From Desulfatiglandales bacterium (GTDB lineage Bacteria > Desulfobacterota > DSM-4660 > Desulfatiglandales > Desulfatiglandaceae): a stretch of DNA of 64,000 nucleotides. This document shows, in pieces, positions 2,808 to 20,013 of the stretch (position 1 is the first letter of the stretch; the number at the start of each line of letters is the position of its first letter). Where the stretch lies: NCBI GenBank assembly GCA_963662465.1, contig OY759599.1, positions 6,048,001 through 6,112,000 of the forward strand. The letters run 5' to 3'. Under the pieces are notes generated by a model. It was not told the origin of the DNA. It was given only the letters and a program-made list of their open reading frames with translations, and did no database searches. A program made the position numbers and the translations under genes.

Positions 2808-3868
2808 ACAATCACCATAGCATCGCCGTAGCTGTAAAATCGGTATTCATGCGCGATGGCCCAGGCATAGGCCTTTTTTATCAAATCGAACCCGGCAAAG
2901 GCCGACACCAGGAAGAGCAGTGAACTCTTAGGCAGATGGAAATTCGTAATGAGCCCATCCACCACATGAAAATCAAATCCGGGCGTGATCAGAAGCCCGC
3001 TTTCTCCATGACCTGCGCGCACCCCTTCTTTCGCGGTCCATGCCGTTTCCAGAGCACGAACCACAGTTGTTCCAACGGCAAAAACTTTCCCCCCCCGCTG
3101 CCTGGTTTCGGTAATTAAACGCACGGTGTCAGGCTCGATAAAATAACGCTCCACTCCCAAACGGTGCCTTCGAATGTCCTCTGTTTCCACGGGCCGAAAT
3201 GTGCCGTAACCCACATGAAGCGTTAAAGGTGCAATGGAAATGCCGCGCGCCTTAAGTGCATCGATGACATTTTGGGTAAAATGGAGCCCGGCTGTAGGCG
3301 CCGCAACCGCGCCGTCCCGCATGGCATAAACCGTTTGGTATCTTTCTTTGTCAAGGGCAGCCAGCGAAACGTCTTTCGATCGCTTTATGTAAGGGGGTAG
3401 AGGAAGATGCCCTTTTTCAGCCAAGAGACCTTGAATGCCTTTTCCATCCTCGGAAAAGGATATCCTCACCATGCCCCGTTCAAGGACCTCTTCTATTTCT
3501 CCTGAAACCCCGTCAAAAAAAAGCAGGCCTCCCCGCTTCGGTCTTCGGGAAGACTTCAGCAGGCACAACCTGGGTCCGCGGTGCTGTTCCTCAACGTCGA
3601 AATGTTCCAGAACAAGAATCTCCACTTTCCCCCCGCTCTCCTTGCGGCCAAAAATCCTCGCGGGAAGCACCCGGGTATTGTTCACCACCAAAAGATCATG
3701 GGGTTGGAGAAGAGACGGCAACTCAAAAAAATGGCGATCTGAAAGTACGCCTGTTGAGCGATTCACCCTGAGCAATTTAGAATGATCCCGTTCCGCAGCC
3801 GGAATCTGAGCGATGCGGTCTTCCGGGAGATGAAAATCATAATGTTCTGTTTTCAGCATTGGAAACAC
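2804..3868 (-). CDS. queA: S-adenosylmethionine:tRNA ribosyltransferase-isomerase
   Basis: PLPPYI, AVAAPTAGLHF, TNFHLPKS and YRFYSYGDAM motifs; adjacent to tgt. Start may be the ATG at 3859. Confidence 0.97.
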   Translation of the reverse strand: MFPMLKTEHYDFHLPEDRIAQIPAAERDHSKLLRVNRSTGVLSDRHFFELPSLLQPHDLLVVNNTRVLPARIFGRKESGGKVEILVLEHFDVEEQHRGPRLCLLKSSRRPKRGGLLFFDGVSGEIEEVLERGMVRISFSEDGKGIQGLLAEKGHLPLPPYIKRSKDVSLAALDKERYQTVYAMRDGAVAAPTAGLHFTQNVIDALKARGISIAPLTLHVGYGTFRPVETEDIRRHRLGVERYFIEPDTVRLITETRQRGGKVFAVGTTVVRALETAWTAKEGVRAGHGESGLLITPGFDFHVVDGLITNFHLPKSSLLFLVSAFAGFDLIKKAYAWAIAHEYRFYSYGDAMVIV

Positions 3869-13646: not shown

Positions 13647-13880
13647 TTAATTTTGAGAGGGTATTAACTGCCTGAAATTCCAGGGCAGCCATTTTTCAGG
13701 ATTTGCCGCAACTGCGGATGCGTTTTTCTGAAGGGCCACCAGATAGTCGAAAGGATTTTTGTGGGCCAGGTTGCAGGTTTGGATAAGGCTCATGAGCATG
13801 TCGCCTACATCCGCTCCGTTCTGCGTTTTGTAAAGCAGGGAGTTTTTTCTGTGAATAATGGATTTTTTCAACAGGCTGCT
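13647..13880 (-). pseudogene. IS66-family transposase C-terminal remnant
   Basis: LKKSIIHRKNSLLYKT...MSLIQTC...NPFDYL...WLPWN resembles the TnpC C-terminus; possible GTAAGC end at 13614. Confidence 0.75.
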
Positions 13881-13914
13881 GACAGCTTCGCGGTAAAATG
13901 GATATCTGCGCCAA

Positions 13915-14587
13915 TCAAGGGCTCGGACGGCCTCTGGCGCGAAGCCTGATAGGTTTACCATTTCTATGTAAGCCCATCTTATTAACAGCAGCAATCAATT
14001 TGTGCATGGTTACGATATTCGTTTTTGAGAGCCCCTTCATATTTGCCAAGTATATCACTTCCAAAGGGCTTTCATACAATCCACCACTCCTTTCAAAAAA
14101 GAGTCGAATAAAGCTGTCAAGGTTCATGCTAACCTCGCCGCTCATTAGCACCAGTATAAGCGAAAAGAATTCTATCAGTTTGTTCTCCAATAGAAGCGTT
14201 CTCAGCGTCATGATGCTCTGTTTTCGGAAATCGCGATCGTGTCGCGTACCGGCAGGGCCAAGCTTTTCGATACCTTCTTTGATGGCCTCTTTTTGGGTTT
14301 CGATCTTGGCGTACTCGGCTTTTAGTACCGCTAAGCGGTTATTTCGTTGATCGAGTCGCGTCCCATGGTCTTTCTCTTTTGACTCTTCTACCTTCTTTTC
14401 TTGCTCCTTAATTTTTTCTTCTTTCCTGAACGCTTTCCTTTCTGCTTTCTGCAACTGTTCTTGTTTCTCGTCAACTTTACGCTGGTGGTGACGATCTACA
14501 CACTCAATTTTTTTCGTCCCGTAGTTGACGTCCAAGGCGCCATGCTCTTTCATCCTTCTGAAGTTGTTCTCTTGCTTTTCGGTTCGC
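13915..14587 (-). pseudogene. 5'-truncated putative transposase (family unclear)
   Basis: QENNFR motif followed by a coiled-coil region; the frame stays open up to the terminal repeat of the IS21-like element. Confidence 0.55.
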
Positions 14588-14850
14588 TGCTTGGGCGCTA
14601 ACCAAAATGGAACCAGTTTTGCTACTCCAAACGGAACCAGATATTGCGCACTGGTCTTTTCCTTTTAGAAGGGTTTTCTTGTAAATTTGTTAGAGGTTGC
14701 ATGAAAGAGTATATCAGATGGTATTTTAAAAATGCTGGTGAGACACGTAGCGTTCTGGTTGAAGAATCAGTGATGAGGATACCATCAATATGGTGATGGC
14801 AGAGAAGAGGGGATTAGATTTTTCGGTTAAGGGCAATGCTTATTGAGGAA

Positions 14851-15048
14851 CTATTTGTCTATGTCATAGTCGTCCGGTAAATTCAGGAGGCCTCCCTTCG
14901 CCAATTGATCCTCAATCAAATATCCAATTTCCCCGTTTTTTTTCAGCTGTAGAATCATCCATTTGGGGAGACGAATGGTGAGCAGTTCACGTCTCAAATG
15001 TTCCGGTTTCTTTCTTCGGCCGGCGCCTACCCGTTTTCCACCTCTCAT
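14851..15048 (-). CDS. Small basic DNA-binding protein (RGGxRxGAGR motif, RHH-like)
   Basis: MRGGKRVGAGRRKK...LTIRLPKW; lies inside the element downstream of istB. Confidence 0.6.
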   Translation of the reverse strand: MRGGKRVGAGRRKKPEHLRRELLTIRLPKWMILQLKKNGEIGYLIEDQLAKGGLLNLPDDYDIDK

Positions 15049-15146
15049 TTCAAGCTCCAAGACAAGGTAATTTCTGATATTCGTGTAACGAGATTCAAAC
15101 AGACCGGTGATATTCAGACCTCAAAACCGGCCCTTTGGCGAACATC

Positions 15147-15980
15147 TCATTTTCTGAGGGAAGGACCATCAATATGAATGTTGATGCAGCGATGGTTGAG
15201 ACGATCCAGCAAGGCATCGACCATGTCCTTTGGTTCAAGCAGCGAATACCATTGTTCAGGTTGAAGATTGGTCGTAATAATTGTGGACCGACCGGCTTCA
15301 TAGCGATCTTTCATGAGTTTAAAAAAGGCGTTCATCTGCTCTTTTTTGAGGGTCAGGTATCCCAGTTCATCGAGCAGAAGCAGGTCATATCTGCAAAGGG
15401 CATTGAGGAGTTTCGGGGTGGACCGATCTGCCAAAGACGCATAGAGCTGATCCAGCAAATCCTGAACATTATAAAAACGCCCCCGGTACCCGGCAATAAT
15501 GGCTTGACGAAGGATCCCCACGGCCAATCCCGTTTTGCCGACGCCGGTTTTTCCATGGAACACGATGTTTTCTCTTCGGCTGATAAAGTCAAGGCCGGAC
15601 AACGTCATGATCAGGGCAAATTTGTTCTATTTGTAAACCTTTGATATCAAAACCTTATGAAGGACACATCAATTCAAACAAATCAATGGATTAGCGTTAG
15701 AACAAATTCACCGTGACGTCATGATCCGGCTCTTCTGTATTCCCGGCTGAAGATCAAACGGAAAGGAGTTGAGGGTCCATTCCCATGGAAGCTTTGCAAT
15801 CTGGACCCGATAGATCATGCTGCGCTCCTGCCGGAAACGTAATTCCTCAGCCAGGAGATTGTAGATGACCTCGTGAATGGAAAAACCGTTCTTTTCAGCC
15901 GAAGCCAACTGTTCTTCGAGAGCCTTCAGCATGCCTTTAAACTTCAAATCAATGAGTAACTGTTCAATTTTCTTTTTCAT
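15147..15980 (-). pseudogene. istB: IS21 helper ATPase IstB interrupted by a MITE
   Basis: Two same-frame ORFs (15708-15980 and 15147-15608) with Walker A GKTGVGKT and Walker B LLLLDELG. Removing 114 bp (MITE plus one TSD) restores a 239-aa protein. Confidence 0.9.
15612..15715. mobile_element. 104-bp MITE with ISAs1-type ends
   Basis: Ends CAGGGCAAATTTGTTCTA and TAGAACAAATTCACCGTG; 10-bp TSD ACGTCATGAT at 15602-15611 and 15716-15725. Confidence 0.92.
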
Positions 15981-17359
15981 AGATCAAAAAAGTCTCCCGC
16001 GATATAATCGAGAATAATGTTTTCCAGACGCGACAAATCAAAAAGTCCATATTTAAGCGCCTGTGTTATGGCTTTCAAAAAAGGTTCCCCGGGATAAGTG
16101 CGTTTCAGATGAAGCAACCGACGTAACTTGACCACACCGCGACCGTGACTTCTTTTCTTCAGTTCAGCCACATACTCATCCAGGATGGCATCCTCTCCCG
16201 TCAACAGCTGTTCTTCTTTTGAAGGGATTCGGGGATCTTTTTTTCTTCGAATGGGAACATGGTGACCGGGCAGGGTTGTTCGGGTGTTGCGTTTATCCAG
16301 TATGCGGTCATGTTCCGCCACTTTTGTGTTTTTGTCGTAAACGATGACCTTGAGCCAATGTTTCTGTACTTCCAGGGAGTTCCCAATCAGCGCTTCAGGG
16401 ACTGAATAGCGGTTGGTGTCCAAGTGCACATATCCCTGAACATCGGCTACCCTGTGTTCTGCCACATAGACTGGCGGCTGGTATGCCGGTAAATCAATGA
16501 GATATGGCTTTTCAATGACATAGGCCTCATCCGGCGTCATCCCTAAAGCCCGTTTAAACTTTTTATCGCTTGTATTCCGGCACCAGTCGATTGCCTGCCG
16601 GTTCAAATCCTGCCAGCTAACAAATGTTCTACCGGGAAGAAAATTGTTTTCCACAAAATGAAAAGGCCTTTCCACACGGGCACTTCGATTGGCGTCTCCT
16701 ACAGCATGGGCCTCAAACCGGGTTCCATACATATCGCCGAAGTATTTCATTTCAGGCGCAATCAATGCATCAGGCCCGGTGCCGCCGGCCACAATAACAT
16801 TGGTGTTGTCAACCATGCACCGGGAACACACCCCGTCCATAAACTCGAATGCTTTTTTTAGGAAAACCTTGCACTCAAACCGGGTAAAACAGGGGTAATA
16901 CTGAATAAAAATCCTTCGGCAAAAGGCCAGGGTCAGGGACGCGCACTGGGTCGACATTTTTTTCCCATTAATGACAACCAGATGGGGTGACGTATCATGC
17001 TGCATCTCCTGACCGGGTTTAAAATGGTATTGGCCCGCCCGTCTTTTTTTACGTTCCCGGATCTCGTACTTTCTCATAATCCAGGTCAGACTCTGATAAG
17101 GGATTTTGATCTGTTGGCGGCTTTCCAGTTCCTCGGCTACTCGCACGGCATTTCCTTTACATTCCTTGAAAAGCTCGCGGATCAACGGGACATGTTCTTC
17201 ATACCGGGAGTTCCTTTGGGGTACCGCCTCTTCGTCATGATCATCTAAAACCTTCGTGACGGTATTGCGACCGGCCTTCAGGGTTTTGGCGATGTCGCGC
17301 AAACTCATGCCGGTTTTTTTCAATTCCACAATGGCATCTTTTTTGGATTGTCGGATCAT
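15977..17359 (-). CDS. istA: IS21-family transposase IstA
   Basis: N-terminal HTH, PGQEMQHD / VDN / RVERPF DDE motifs and C-terminal NRYSVP; ATGA overlap with istB. Confidence 0.92.
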   Translation of the reverse strand: MIRQSKKDAIVELKKTGMSLRDIAKTLKAGRNTVTKVLDDHDEEAVPQRNSRYEEHVPLIRELFKECKGNAVRVAEELESRQQIKIPYQSLTWIMRKYEIRERKKRRAGQYHFKPGQEMQHDTSPHLVVINGKKMSTQCASLTLAFCRRIFIQYYPCFTRFECKVFLKKAFEFMDGVCSRCMVDNTNVIVAGGTGPDALIAPEMKYFGDMYGTRFEAHAVGDANRSARVERPFHFVENNFLPGRTFVSWQDLNRQAIDWCRNTSDKKFKRALGMTPDEAYVIEKPYLIDLPAYQPPVYVAEHRVADVQGYVHLDTNRYSVPEALIGNSLEVQKHWLKVIVYDKNTKVAEHDRILDKRNTRTTLPGHHVPIRRKKDPRIPSKEEQLLTGEDAILDEYVAELKKRSHGRGVVKLRRLLHLKRTYPGEPFLKAITQALKYGLFDLSRLENIILDYIAGDFFDL

Positions 17360-18240
17360 AATTGGGTCGCTTTCTTGAGTTCCAGTGCTTGTTTTTCTAT
17401 CTTTTTCACCCAGGTTTTGAGCGTTTGTTTCTTCAACTGATCGCTTTTTGGGTAATGGACATGCGAAACGGTTTTCACCAGACGTTTGAGAACCGCATAT
17501 GCCATTTCAATATCCTTGAACCATTTGCCTTCCGGTCCATCATGAACTTCTTTGGCTTGTTTAGACTGGGTTCTTTGTTCGAGAACTTTTATGAAAAGGG
17601 ATGGATTTTCCAGCATGTGGTCTCGAACAGACCGGTTGCTTTTCTGGTAATGTGCGTAGAAACGGGCCAGTTCCCTTGTGGATAGAGGTTCTTTTTCCAG
17701 GTGGGCCAACAGTTTTTGTGCGTCTTCACCGTTGGCGCGCGCCAACGGCGCCATGACACGGCTGGCAGCCCAGGTTGAAAGTGAGCCTGCAATCACGGTT
17801 CTCAAAATATTTTCCGGCAGGGCTTCAACCAGGTCCAGCCGCCGTTTTACAAAACTCTTGTCGCGCCCTATTCGGGTTGCAATATGGGAGAGGCTGCACC
17901 CAAAACGCCGATGTAATTCCTGAAGTAAAACAGACTGCTCAATGACTTCCCATTGCCGTTCATTGGCCTTGGTTAAAAGCGAAAACATGGCATTTTGTTC
18001 GTTTTCTTTTGAGAATTGGACACATATCCGGTCCTTTCCACAAGCACAAAGCGCTCGAACACGCAGGTAGCCATCAATCAGAATCAGTTTGTCTTTTTCT
18101 TCAATAGCCAGGGCCGGAACGATCTGCCCGTAAGTTTCGATGGAATCCCTCAATCGCTTTAAAGCCTGGTGATTCATTATCCGGCAATGAGCGTAACGCA
18201 ACTCCAGCAAATGAATATCAACGGTTCGGATGGATTCCAT
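17356..18240 (-). CDS. ParB/Spo0J-like protein
   Basis: LRDSIETYGQIVP...LIDGYLRVRAL (ParB N-terminal GxxRxxA-type motif) followed by HTH SLSHIATRIGRDKSFVKRRL; ATGA overlap with istA. Confidence 0.85.
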   Translation of the reverse strand: MESIRTVDIHLLELRYAHCRIMNHQALKRLRDSIETYGQIVPALAIEEKDKLILIDGYLRVRALCACGKDRICVQFSKENEQNAMFSLLTKANERQWEVIEQSVLLQELHRRFGCSLSHIATRIGRDKSFVKRRLDLVEALPENILRTVIAGSLSTWAASRVMAPLARANGEDAQKLLAHLEKEPLSTRELARFYAHYQKSNRSVRDHMLENPSLFIKVLEQRTQSKQAKEVHDGPEGKWFKDIEMAYAVLKRLVKTVSHVHYPKSDQLKKQTLKTWVKKIEKQALELKKATQL

Positions 18241-18637
18241 ACCCAGTCTCCCGAAAGATTTCCTCTATGGTTTCTCCAAGACTGACCCAATTTCCTTGCC
18301 GGATCTCCTTTACCTGTTTCACAATCACAGGACGTCTGGGAAGCGAAAGAACCTGAAACAGACGGCCATCAAACCCAATCAGATCCTTGTCCAACAAGCC
18401 ATCGCGGGCATCGATATATTGATCCAAATGCACCTTTAAAATCCGGCAGATTCTGTCGTAACCATAATAAGAGAGCCCGTTTTTGTCAGATACCAACACC
18501 AGAAAAATGTAGAGCAGCAGCTCATGATGATTCAGGCTCTCCCAAAAGCCGTTTCTCAAAAAACGATGCTCCAGAAAGCCGAAGCTTCCATTGATGACAC
18601 GCACTCTTTCGGGAAAAAGGACTCTTTTTTTGATCAT
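18218..18637 (-). CDS. Winged-helix-like protein
   Basis: ELLLYIFL...GLSYYGYDRICRIL...ARDGLLDKDLI resembles HTH_36 / replication-initiator wHTH domains; AGGAG RBS. Confidence 0.65.
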   Translation of the reverse strand: MIKKRVLFPERVRVINGSFGFLEHRFLRNGFWESLNHHELLLYIFLVLVSDKNGLSYYGYDRICRILKVHLDQYIDARDGLLDKDLIGFDGRLFQVLSLPRRPVIVKQVKEIRQGNWVSLGETIEEIFRETGYGIHPNR

Positions 18638-18649
18638 TTTTTTCTCCTG

Positions 18650-19066
18650 TCATGGATATGGGGTTTTCTCAAAGCCTGTTACATCTGAAAAAACCCTCCC
18701 TGCATAAGCACGGCGAGGAAAATGGTCCACAACAACCCCGATCGACCCGCAAAAAAGACAGCTGGGTCGGTTCCCCGACCGCTTTTTGGGTTCAATATCA
18801 CAGTCTTTTTGAGGTGTTGAACTATCATCACCAGGGTTCAGTCCATTTTTTTTGGATTTTTTTGTTTTTTCGTACAAACGACGGCGCTCTTTCCCTTTTT
18901 TCGAATTGCGGTATTTCCCCTGAGCTTTCCGGTGCAGCTGTCTTTGGCGTATCCTGCGACATCGTTCCCCACAATAGGCCTGGCCACGCCAACACGACCG
19001 ACAAACGTGAAAAAAGCAACCACAACATCGGCATTGAACCACTCTTAAAAGGACATCTCCCATCAT
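18650..19066 (-). CDS. Cys-rich basic hypothetical protein (putative Zn finger)
   Basis: CRCC...CRSC...YCGERC cluster, Arg/Lys-rich helix and C-terminal CLFC; first gene of the element operon. Confidence 0.7.
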   Translation of the reverse strand: MMGDVLLRVVQCRCCGCFFHVCRSCWRGQAYCGERCRRIRQRQLHRKAQGKYRNSKKGKERRRLYEKTKKSKKNGLNPGDDSSTPQKDCDIEPKKRSGNRPSCLFCGSIGVVVDHFPRRAYAGRVFSDVTGFEKTPYP

Positions 19067-19141
19067 TCCGGCCTTGCAATTGGCCGGAAACACACTTATA
19101 TAAAATTGGCGTGTGTGTGGCTTCCGGCTCTATCCGGTGGT

Positions 19142-19177
19142 CAAAAAAGAAGGCCCGAAGCGGCTACTTCGGGCCTT
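19142..19177 (-). terminator. Intrinsic terminator-like hairpin in the leader of the element operon
   Basis: Minus strand GAAGGCCCGAAG-TAGCCG-CTTCGGGCCTTC followed by TTTTTT, about 80 nt upstream of the first ORF. Confidence 0.7.
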
Positions 19178-19428
19178 CACCATCCATTCTACAAAGTAAA
19201 TCGCATTTCCACTTAACCAAGCCTCTGTCTTGGAAGAAGAAAACCAAATCCAAAGAAAATAGATTTTATAAAAATTTATTGAAAAGTAAATCTACATCAA
19301 CGACTCCTTTGCCGCCACTTATGGATCCCTCATCGTCCGCTATACCTGAGGGCCGTACTCACTGGCGGTGACAGCCAATGGTTCAATTTCCATTAGCAAA
19401 CTTGGTTCAGTTTTGATTAGCGTTGAAG

Positions 19429-20013
19429 CCCTTATTTAATCATGTCGAACAAGCGCGGGTAAATGGTGGCGTTACTGAATTCGAATTGGTCGACAAAGAG
19501 GATCCGGAAAAAACGCATCGCTTCCGATTCCTTAACCATGTACCTCTCAACGCCTCTAACAAGGATGTACTGGTTAACTTTCTGGAATATTGGGAAATTA
19601 CACCGGAAAAAACACAGCATTTCAGTTGGGTGACTGATTTTATCATAGAAAAGGACAATGCATACGAGCTGATGCGAGGCGGTCGTGCGAGATGGAAGAT
19701 CGAAAATGAAACCTTCAATACTCTTAAAAACCAAGGTTATCATTTTGAACATAACTTCGGCCTTGGCAAGAAGAATCTGAGTGTTGTTTTCGCGATGCTC
19801 ATGATGATTGCATTTCTGGTTGATCAAACGCAGCAGCTTTGTTGTCCCTTATTTCGAGCTGCATGGCAGAAACTCGGTTCCAAAAGAGAATTATGGGAAC
19901 GTATGAGAGCTCTGTTTAAAGATTTTGAATTCAAATCCATGAGGATGCTCTATGAAGCTCTCTATTATGGTGTGAAATTCCAAGCGCCAGTCATTTTGTA
20001 TGACACTGGGTGA
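19429..20013 (+). pseudogene. 5'-truncated DDE transposase (ISNCY-like)
   Basis: GRARWKIENETFNTLKNQGYHFEHNFG motif; N-terminal half missing at the IS21-like end; possible single IS end GCGGGAATTGCTG at 20249-20261. Confidence 0.8.

Follow-up and report, generated by a model that had tools for sequence, protein, structure and literature searches.

A ParB-type gene lies directly before istA-istB in a deep branch of IS21-family transposons

We analyzed a 64,000-nucleotide stretch of DNA (the window) from a Desulfatiglandales bacterium, the source genome of which is a single 8.16-Mb contig (C1; the window is C1:6048001-6112000), and in it a transposable element of the IS21 family at window positions 14590-19428. 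This element belongs to a deep and widespread branch of IS21 in which a gene for a ParB-type protein stands directly before istA-istB, and in most sub-branches that gene sits behind one for a zinc-ribbon (Zn-ribbon) protein. The intact element is an autonomous unit of 4725 bp, moved by IstA/IstB DDE transposition with target duplications of 7 bp (sometimes 8 bp). Within imperfect terminal repeats it holds six co-oriented minus-strand genes, in the order Zn-ribbon, winged helix-turn-helix (wHTH), ParB-like, IstA, IstB and a small RGG protein (Table 1). An earlier note on this DNA had proposed such a six-gene unit, and the open reading frames (ORFs) together with the flanks of 19 other genomic copies confirmed it to the base, the exact ends being set by the positions at which those flanks diverge. 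ORF coordinates also bore out the tight junctions that had been described (a 12-bp gap, a 23-bp overlap and two ATGA overlaps). The boundaries of the other genomic copies enclose all six ORFs, placing the extra genes inside the moving unit, as had been claimed.

In a word-indexed search the ParB-like protein had 984 homologs at E<=0.001, most of them located on contigs of 1-6 kb. A profile of 22 ParB homologs (alignment A1), run against 1.84 billion sequences, retrieved 450 representatives (50% identity) at E<=1e-30, 2727 at 1e-10 and 19798 at 0.001. Scanning metagenomes with the same profile gave 383 confirmed relatives, from which 80 loci were kept. The start of istA adjoins ParB in 62 of the 65 metagenome loci that have at least 400 nt after ParB, the three others being L118, L119, and L135; five loci (L074, L075, L096, L102, and L140) carry just the first ~98 residues of IstA. 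A recurrent deletion form was seen in L115-L119, where ParB residues ~7-254 are joined to the C-terminal ~35 residues of IstB; these may represent a non-autonomous form that retains the head genes.

Among genome contigs, relatives with an IstA 85-100% identical to that of the window (strain NaphS2 with many copies, two metagenome-assembled genomes at 98% and one at 100%) all had the order Zn-ribbon, wHTH, ParB, IstA, IstB wherever the head was visible. A Planctomycetota-labeled contig of a metagenome-assembled genome (IstA 90%) begins within parB, so its head is out of view. ParB-IstA-IstB was also carried by a contig with a 50%-identical IstA. Of 401 genomes sampled from the phylum, 19 had an IstA match at E<=1e-20. 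ParB was upstream in each match of at least 49% identity that had upstream sequence (L143, L144, and L145), L150 being a C-terminal IstA fragment only. A ParB ORF found by profile search also preceded IstA proteins 31% identical to that of the window, in L162 and L166 (E 3e-22, both missed by tblastn) and in L199 (E 6e-28); L146, L147, and L168 were cut or broken and uninformative. No ParB was found before the IstA genes of this sample at about 25% identity.

The pairwise identities of ParB and IstA were closely correlated (r = 0.94; 48 non-identical loci with both genes complete), and the ParB and IstA trees had 32 of 44–45 splits in common, compared with at most 2 in 500 label shuffles. When only splits with support of at least 0.8 were considered, 25 of 31–35 were common. 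Such agreement is expected for linked genes, and it shows that no swap of ParB has taken place; co-evolution with IstA was a check set out in the note. The ATGA overlap of parB with istA, which it had read as translational coupling, held for the window element and its closest clade but not as a trait of the family, as the two genes are elsewhere separated by a gap of about 10–25 nt.

With a wider Cys motif (a stricter one gave 38/69), a Zn-ribbon ORF was present upstream of ParB in 59 of the 69 loci where the available sequence was 650 nt or longer. Of the ten loci without one, at least several (the Ga0255 loci) are frameshifted and come from a single series of samples. By motif, these ORFs comprise nine of type 1 (the window type), 39 of type 2 and 11 of type 3. 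A hidden Markov model (HMM) of the 39 type-2 ORFs matches the window protein with E 6e-11, and the Zn-ribbon ORFs are therefore one family. Type 1 has eight invariant cysteines (C12, C15, C22, C25, C32, C36, C103, and C106 in alignment A6). The protein had no family in Pfam, PHROG or NCBIfam, its model (pLDDT 72) had no PDB match at E<=0.001 (YacG/FCS-finger rows had E>1 and were unused), and an atlas look-up returned unnamed clusters only. What points to nucleic-acid binding is the Cys pattern and the basic tail. The wHTH protein matched HTH_36 in Pfam with E 5.5e-5 and 23.3 bits, just under the 25-bit cut-off; it has 412 homologs at E<=0.001, none of them with a name, and is present in 27 of the 401 phylum genomes. 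Among the metagenome loci its gene is limited to the sub-branch with a ParB at least 63% identical (9/69). The expectation that all three upstream genes would accompany IstA was thus upheld for ParB and the Zn-ribbon gene and failed for wHTH, which is confined to one sub-branch.

At 28 loci in the phylum the wHTH gene is preceded by a Zn-ribbon ORF, and the type-2 HMM recognizes 19 of 21 upstream ORFs. In 17 of the 28 loci this head is followed by the gene for a distant IstA (rve and/or Mu-transpos_C_2); the next gene is that of an IS110-type DEDD transposase in L186 and of a tyrosine recombinase in L198, and in L171 it is a ParB-like ORF at the contig end. Gene order at these loci confirmed that Zn-ribbon and wHTH can be regarded as a swappable head cassette common to unrelated elements, and its position before unrelated recombinase genes argues for a role that is not tied to IstA/IstB chemistry. 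In the comparison with the NaphS2 element, dS was 1.79 for Zn-ribbon and 0.36 for ParB, and the element head has therefore been exchanged by recombination. In L179 (1501-2442, G384) a single 313-aa ORF joins an HTH_36 part to the helix-turn-helix (HTH) and rve parts of IstA; this is either a natural fusion or a frameshifted pair.

The small RGG protein had no Pfam, PHROG or NCBIfam match. Its nearest named atlas clusters are ribbon-helix-helix families (0.83–0.88), a lead only, and it is possibly a ribbon-helix-helix DNA binder. Its gene follows IstB in 14 of the 27 loci with room for it and is missing from the close relatives L024 and L064; it is 69–78% identical in elements whose ParB is just ~50% identical, and homologs occur in two other IS21-type elements of the window genome. 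The RGG gene is an optional module. With L064, L024, and L066 as comparisons, dN/dS was 0.31–0.35 for Zn-ribbon, 0.12–0.30 for wHTH, 0.19–0.27 for ParB, 0.11–0.16 for IstA and 0.06–0.07 for IstB, substitution rates that show purifying selection on the accessory genes. That the extra genes are core machinery and not cargo, as the note had argued, was thus sustained for ParB and Zn-ribbon, which are stable, co-inherited and under purifying selection, but not for wHTH with its single sub-branch or for RGG with its absence from close relatives.

The ParB-like protein consists of a ParB/Srx N-terminal domain, an HTH (HTH_ParB, E 1.2e-6 in Pfam) and a family-specific helical C-terminal part, of which the last 90 residues contain an invariant GPE..W.K motif (alignment A1). 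The A1 profile matched solved ParB, Spo0J, and Noc with E 3.3e-15 to 2e-8 over residues about 20–205 (27–205 for the ParB/Srx domain plus HTH in the comparison with the PDB), and the model of the protein (pLDDT 84) had ParB, Noc, and KorB as its top Foldseek matches. The GERRxR and ENLQR motifs of the ParB/Noc/KorB group are not intact. In the family alignment the GERRWR of M. xanthus ParB is matched by GylrlK/R and its ENLQR by kNndR, with a family consensus of K(N/A)N(D/E)R in which the window protein has Ala then Asn. One Arg, the Asn and the last Arg of the cytidine triphosphate (CTP) motifs are retained; the Glu residues (including that of Box III) and the first Arg are lost. The positions lost here matter for CTP hydrolysis and binding in B. 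subtilis ParB. A working CTP clamp, which had been suggested from the resemblance to ParB, is neither supported nor refuted by these motifs (GYLRxK/R for GERRxR, and a replaced Box III Glu). The protein also differs from ParB, Noc, and KorB in having a family-specific C-terminal part, no ParA partner or identified parS, and a gene located inside a transposase operon. The ORF list and a Pfam scan showed no ParA-like ORF, replication initiator or origin in the element; no parS-like site was identified there, the palindrome of leader hairpin 1 (see below) being a candidate only.

For IstA the best NCBIfam match was transpos_IS21 (E 1.9e-37, 129 bits, under the 160-bit cut-off), and Mu-transpos_C_2 was above cut-off in the Pfam scan (E 9.6e-17). 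Residues D122, D184, and E230 were invariant among 33 relatives. IstB matched PF01695 in both of its pieces in the window (3′ piece, E 7.6e-42; 5′ piece, 3.4e-11), and copy L005 encodes an intact 239-aa IstB directly after istA. The two terminal repeats agree at 37 of 50 positions, and each end has two sub-repeats of ~19–20 nt with 24 nt spacing. A DDE IstA, an IstB helper, ends with multiple sub-repeats and a short duplication are features of the IS21 family that the element shows; the family’s two-ORF layout is not found, as six ORFs lie inside the ends, and that layout is a description of known IS21 members rather than of mechanism. Target duplications in the IS21 family range from 4 to 8 bp (ISfinder).

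Exact-end matching found 23 two-ended copies in the genome, ~100% identical and dispersed over the 8.16-Mb chromosome on either strand. Seventeen are 4725 bp long, two 4744, two 6656 and one 6532, and the window copy is 4839 bp; an intact copy lies at C1:4395596-4400320. Among four further one-ended matches, two are full copies with an altered end. The 4744-bp copies have 19 extra bp (C1:174103-178846 and 360993-365736), and those of 6656 bp (C1:1533098-1539753 and 5974616-5981271) and 6532 bp (C1:6833271-6839802) hold about 1.8–1.9 kb of foreign DNA inside. Target duplications were 7–8 bp in 16 of the 23, 6 bp in one and 5 bp in one; five, the window copy among them, had none. Numbers of this size put the repeat-bounded unit well outside what chance would give. 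The 16 sites reconstructed from 7–8 bp duplications gave no target consensus (GC 48% vs 49.5% for the genome), so that the Tn7-like target selection put forward in the note was not supported.

The sequencing runs examined were all in the form of assembled contigs, which cannot show the absence of a joint. A contig of run X1, which may be the sample from which the genome came, joins both flanks of copy L005, skipping 4732 letters (4725 + 7) with 8 shared letters; an empty-site allele therefore coexists with the L005 insertion at a polymorphic site. This fits recent movement of the element. No end-to-end (circle or tandem) junction was listed among the run contigs, which cannot prove its absence. 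Contigs from the RNA libraries of runs X7 and X9 span 28 of 30 bins of a 90–99% alike element, with DNA carry-over possible.

A 335-nt leader separates the left end (in gene orientation) from the first gene. Within it are a promoter-like site, a hairpin with the look of an intrinsic terminator (hairpin 1), a variable hairpin 2, and a hairpin 3 that abuts the start codon (Table 1). A promoter scan returned no more sites than in shuffled sequence. Hairpin 1 is kept in all loci of the clade; in more distant elements whose Zn-ribbon gene is of type 1, the changes in it are compensatory, with an A-run before it and not a T-run after it. The hairpins accompany the type-1 Zn-ribbon gene, also where it occurs in elements of another type. 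Over 14 sequences, 96.8% of the cells of hairpins 1 and 3 were paired, compared with 29–61% in slid controls; double changes were found in 10 of 18 pairs, and none of 500 shuffles reached the pairing result. All 25 genomic occurrences of the hairpin-1 palindrome lie inside copies of the element. The leader hairpins may be either RNA structures (a terminator and a start-codon mask) or palindromic sites for a protein. An Rfam scan of the element gave a single match at E 0.24 and nothing meaningful.

What the accessory proteins do was considered from this evidence. Our preferred reading, to which we give an even chance, is that they control the element’s own DNA or leader or act on it architecturally. 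IstA and IstB would perform the chemistry, as in IS21, and the accessory proteins, as DNA or RNA binders, would set the amount of transposase and help to build or restrain the end complex, in a repressor or architectural role like that of KorB or Noc. The conserved leader, with its terminator-like hairpin and start-codon hairpin, would insulate the operon, and IstA and IstB could be translated only downstream of the accessory genes. We favor this because ParB and wHTH match DNA-binding domains (wHTH just below cut-off), because the accessory genes are translated ahead of the transposase, because the head cassette is combined with recombinases of three unrelated chemistries, and because no target preference was seen. 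The structured leader and a palindrome that in this genome is exclusive to element copies also point to a regulatory or architectural role, and the Zn-ribbon and RGG proteins are predicted nucleic-acid binders.

Several observations weigh against control or architecture. No binding site for an accessory protein was identified in the element, where repeat searches showed no internal array beyond the terminal sub-repeats (the two occurrences of a 12-mer around the RGG gene are no more than expected by chance). ParB, unlike the head, was seen with IstA-type transposases only, L171 being a weak exception, a restriction that is compatible with direct participation in the IS21 machine no less than with regulation. 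The wHTH-rve ORF of L179 hints that the wHTH part can act on the transposase by physical contact. The terminator-like hairpin comes downstream of the promoter-like site, which leaves expression of the operon unexplained; L199 has no Zn-ribbon ORF before ParB, so the Zn-ribbon gene is not universal; and the functional claims are all drawn from sequence.

A bolder proposal, which we regard as speculative, is that the ParB-like and Zn-ribbon proteins are third and fourth working subunits of an IS21-type machine, acting as a nucleotide-gated or DNA-bridging clamp that loads at the element palindrome. From there the clamp would either mark the element’s own DNA (for self-immunity or copy-number control) or hand the ends to IstA/IstB. 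A related alternative, which takes up the note’s idea of target selection or loading and which we consider rather unlikely, has ParB, with the Zn-ribbon protein, as an obligatory subunit of transposition that loads or bridges IstB or IstA to the target or the ends. The co-inheritance of ParB with IstA over the whole branch would fit this, as would the overlap or tight spacing of parB and istA, the restriction of ParB to IstA-type transposases, the fused ORF of L179 and the conserved C-terminal part of ParB, a possible contact surface. It is opposed by the lack of a target consensus and of any marked GC bias at the 16 duplicated sites, by CTPase motifs that are kept only in part, and by a head that works with chemically unrelated recombinases. 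A predicted complex of IstA and IstB with ParB as partner (score 0.05, mark 0.32) counts neither way on binding.

It is similarly improbable, in our judgment, that the extra genes are selfish or adaptive passengers (e.g., anti-defense or host-silencing DNA binders) with no role in transposition. Their modules are swappable, as RGG is missing from close relatives and has homologs beside other recombinase genes, the NaphS2 Zn-ribbon gene was replaced by recombination, and the head is common to unrelated elements. However, the accessory genes come first in the transposase operon, ParB adjoins IstA in nearly every locus and shares a deep phylogeny with it, conservation extends jointly to the leader hairpins and the Zn-ribbon gene, and scans of Pfam, PHROGs, and NCBIfam (PADLOC was not among them) gave only DNA-binding or ParB-type matches or none. 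Maintenance or segregation of an excised circular element by ParB and wHTH, also raised in the note, is very improbable: ParB is a plasmid partition factor, HTH_36-type domains occur in some replication proteins and the head occurs with element types said to form abutted-end or circular intermediates, but the element has no ParA, replication initiator or origin, its ParB motifs are degenerate, and IS21 acts, according to PMC10122671, on single and tandem elements rather than a maintained free circle.

The element is a variant of the known IS21 family, on a large branch with extra genes that we found undescribed in the literature. With IS21 and IS5376 it shares a best family match of IstA to IS21, an AAA+ helper IstB, two sub-repeats per end and short duplications. 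The IS21 prototype of PMC10122671 has two ORFs (istA and istB) in about 2 kb and ends with sub-repeats L1/L2 and R1/R2, which are synapsed by an IstA tetramer; the same paper likens IstB to MuB/TnsC, and in PMC11208146 IstB shapes the target and activates IstA. Unlike these prototypes, the element has 4725 bp and six genes through the addition of ParB, Zn-ribbon, wHTH, and RGG, an IstA that is below the NCBIfam cut-off and about 25% identical to the ordinary IstA of the same phylum, and a structured leader with a terminator-like hairpin. A full-text literature search, with ISfinder and TnCentral outside its coverage, found no report of ParB, Zn-ribbon or wHTH genes inside IS21 elements.

Two further comparisons concern how such genes might work. 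Mu and Tn7 have accessory DNA-binding proteins, namely the Mu repressor and Ner, MuB with its target immunity, and the TnsD/TniQ selectors. The element resembles them in joining a core of MuA/MuB or TnsB/TnsC type to DNA binders that it encodes itself; unlike them, its accessory proteins are not homologous to theirs, and no site-specific target of the TnsD/TniQ kind was seen, as its copies are scattered without a consensus. In the leader of IS200-type elements, a terminator close to the end blocks read-in transcription and a stem-loop hides the ribosome-binding site. The element likewise has a terminator-like hairpin just inside its end and a second hairpin at a start codon, but the two families are unrelated, and the hairpins here follow the type-1 Zn-ribbon gene across element types.

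IS21 serves as a structural model of AAA+-steered transposases and is portrayed as a two-gene element. Here, a large and active branch, with about 25 copies in one genome, has istA-istB permanently joined to ParB-type and Zn-ribbon proteins. If the accessory proteins regulate or join transposition, a machine that has been studied in depth would gain a further layer, and the ParB fold a new function; if the clamp reading were true, this would be the first transposon to employ a ParB-type clamp. That IS21, IS110, and tyrosine-recombinase elements have the Zn-ribbon and wHTH head in common suggests a control module in general use among mobile DNA, undescribed in the literature searched.

The features of the window copy are listed in Table 1. 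For the Cys-rich Zn-ribbon protein, the longest ORF (19093..18650) opens with GTG at 19093, and the ATG at 19066 is the likelier start. Compared with copy L005, the window copy has two substitutions and an insertion of 114 bp, which comprises a miniature element of ~105 bp with imperfect inverted ends of ~35 nt and an 11-bp flanking direct repeat (ACGTCATGATC); this miniature element has 14 matches in the genome. The flank at 19429-20013 and beyond lies within an IS4-like repeat; the opposite flank is unique. As the insert splits istB, one flank is IS4-like interior and there is no target duplication, the window copy is dead and rearranged.

Table 1. Positions of the element’s features in the window; left and right ends are named in gene orientation.
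Feature	Position	Strand	Remarks
Right terminal inverted repeat (istB/RGG side)	14590..14649	-	Starts CTTGGGCGCTAACC; from copy boundaries
Sub-repeats of right end	about 14597-14616 and 14621-14640		
RGG ORF, 69 aa, basic	14851..15060	-	Begins MELEMRGGKRVGAGRRKK
istB, 3′ piece, AAA+ core	15147..15608	-	Residues about 87-239 of the 239-aa intact IstB
Miniature-element insertion in istB, 114 bp	15613..15726	strandless	Inverted repeat and direct repeat; missing from other copies
istB, 5′ piece	15708..15980	-	Start overlaps istA stop (ATGA)
istA, 460 aa, divergent IS21-type DDE transposase	15977..17359	-	
ParB-like gene, 294 aa	17356..18240	-	ATGA overlap with istA
wHTH gene, 139 aa	18218..18637	-	23-bp overlap with parB
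Zn-ribbon (Cys-rich, basic) gene, 138 aa from ATG at 19066	18650..19066	-	12-bp gap to wHTH
Hairpin 3 (TTCCGGCC-N8-GGCCGGAA)	19066..19089	-	Abuts ATG at 19066; loop TTGCAAG conserved, stem covaries
Hairpin 1, 13-pair G+C-rich stem then T6	19149..19178	-	Intrinsic-terminator look on gene strand
Promoter-like site TTTACT-16-TAAAAT	19263..19290	-	Upstream of hairpin 1; consensus match; TTTACT box kept in relatives
Left terminal inverted repeat (Zn-ribbon side)	19369..19428	-	Ends GATTAGCGTTGAAG; from copy boundaries
Sub-repeats of left end	about 19379-19397 and 19403-19421		

Other mobile elements were observed in the same genome. L199 (C1:6812500-6819000, with a further copy near C1:8095257-8099109) is a second and distant ParB-IS21 type, in which a ParB-like gene (298 aa) overlaps that of a 494-aa IstA (31.6% identical to the window IstA), with an IstB of 276 aa, an RGG homolog at 80% identity, and a protein of 164 aa whose zinc finger is of the DnaG CHC2 type (PF01807, E 1.1e-7). 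L200 (C1:7834500-7841000) is an IS21-type element with three genomic copies. Its IstA-like protein of 901 aa (23% identical by tblastn) has a C-terminal Toprim domain (PF13155, E 6.5e-8) and looks like a transposase-primase-like fusion, with no rve match in Pfam at E<=0.01; the gene is followed by two tandem RGG-like ORFs and then IstB.

RGG homologs at 65–67% identity were also present in L201 (C1:3317500-3324000; 3115-3318, minus strand) and L202 (C1:4983500-4990000; 2933-3136, minus strand), directly before an ORF of 584–697 aa whose N-terminus, on inspection by eye, resembles that of a large serine recombinase. There are seven such solo RGG copies in the genome.

The IS4-like repeat that flanks the window copy (19429-20013 and beyond) has weak NCBIfam IS4 matches and at least 14 further genomic copies at 90–100% identity, and its joint with the element has no target duplication. 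The DNA to the left of the element is a patchwork of mobile-DNA pieces, and window positions 13647-14553 hold the remnant of an IS66 C-terminus (weak PF13817) and a 212-aa coiled-coil-like ORF without a family.

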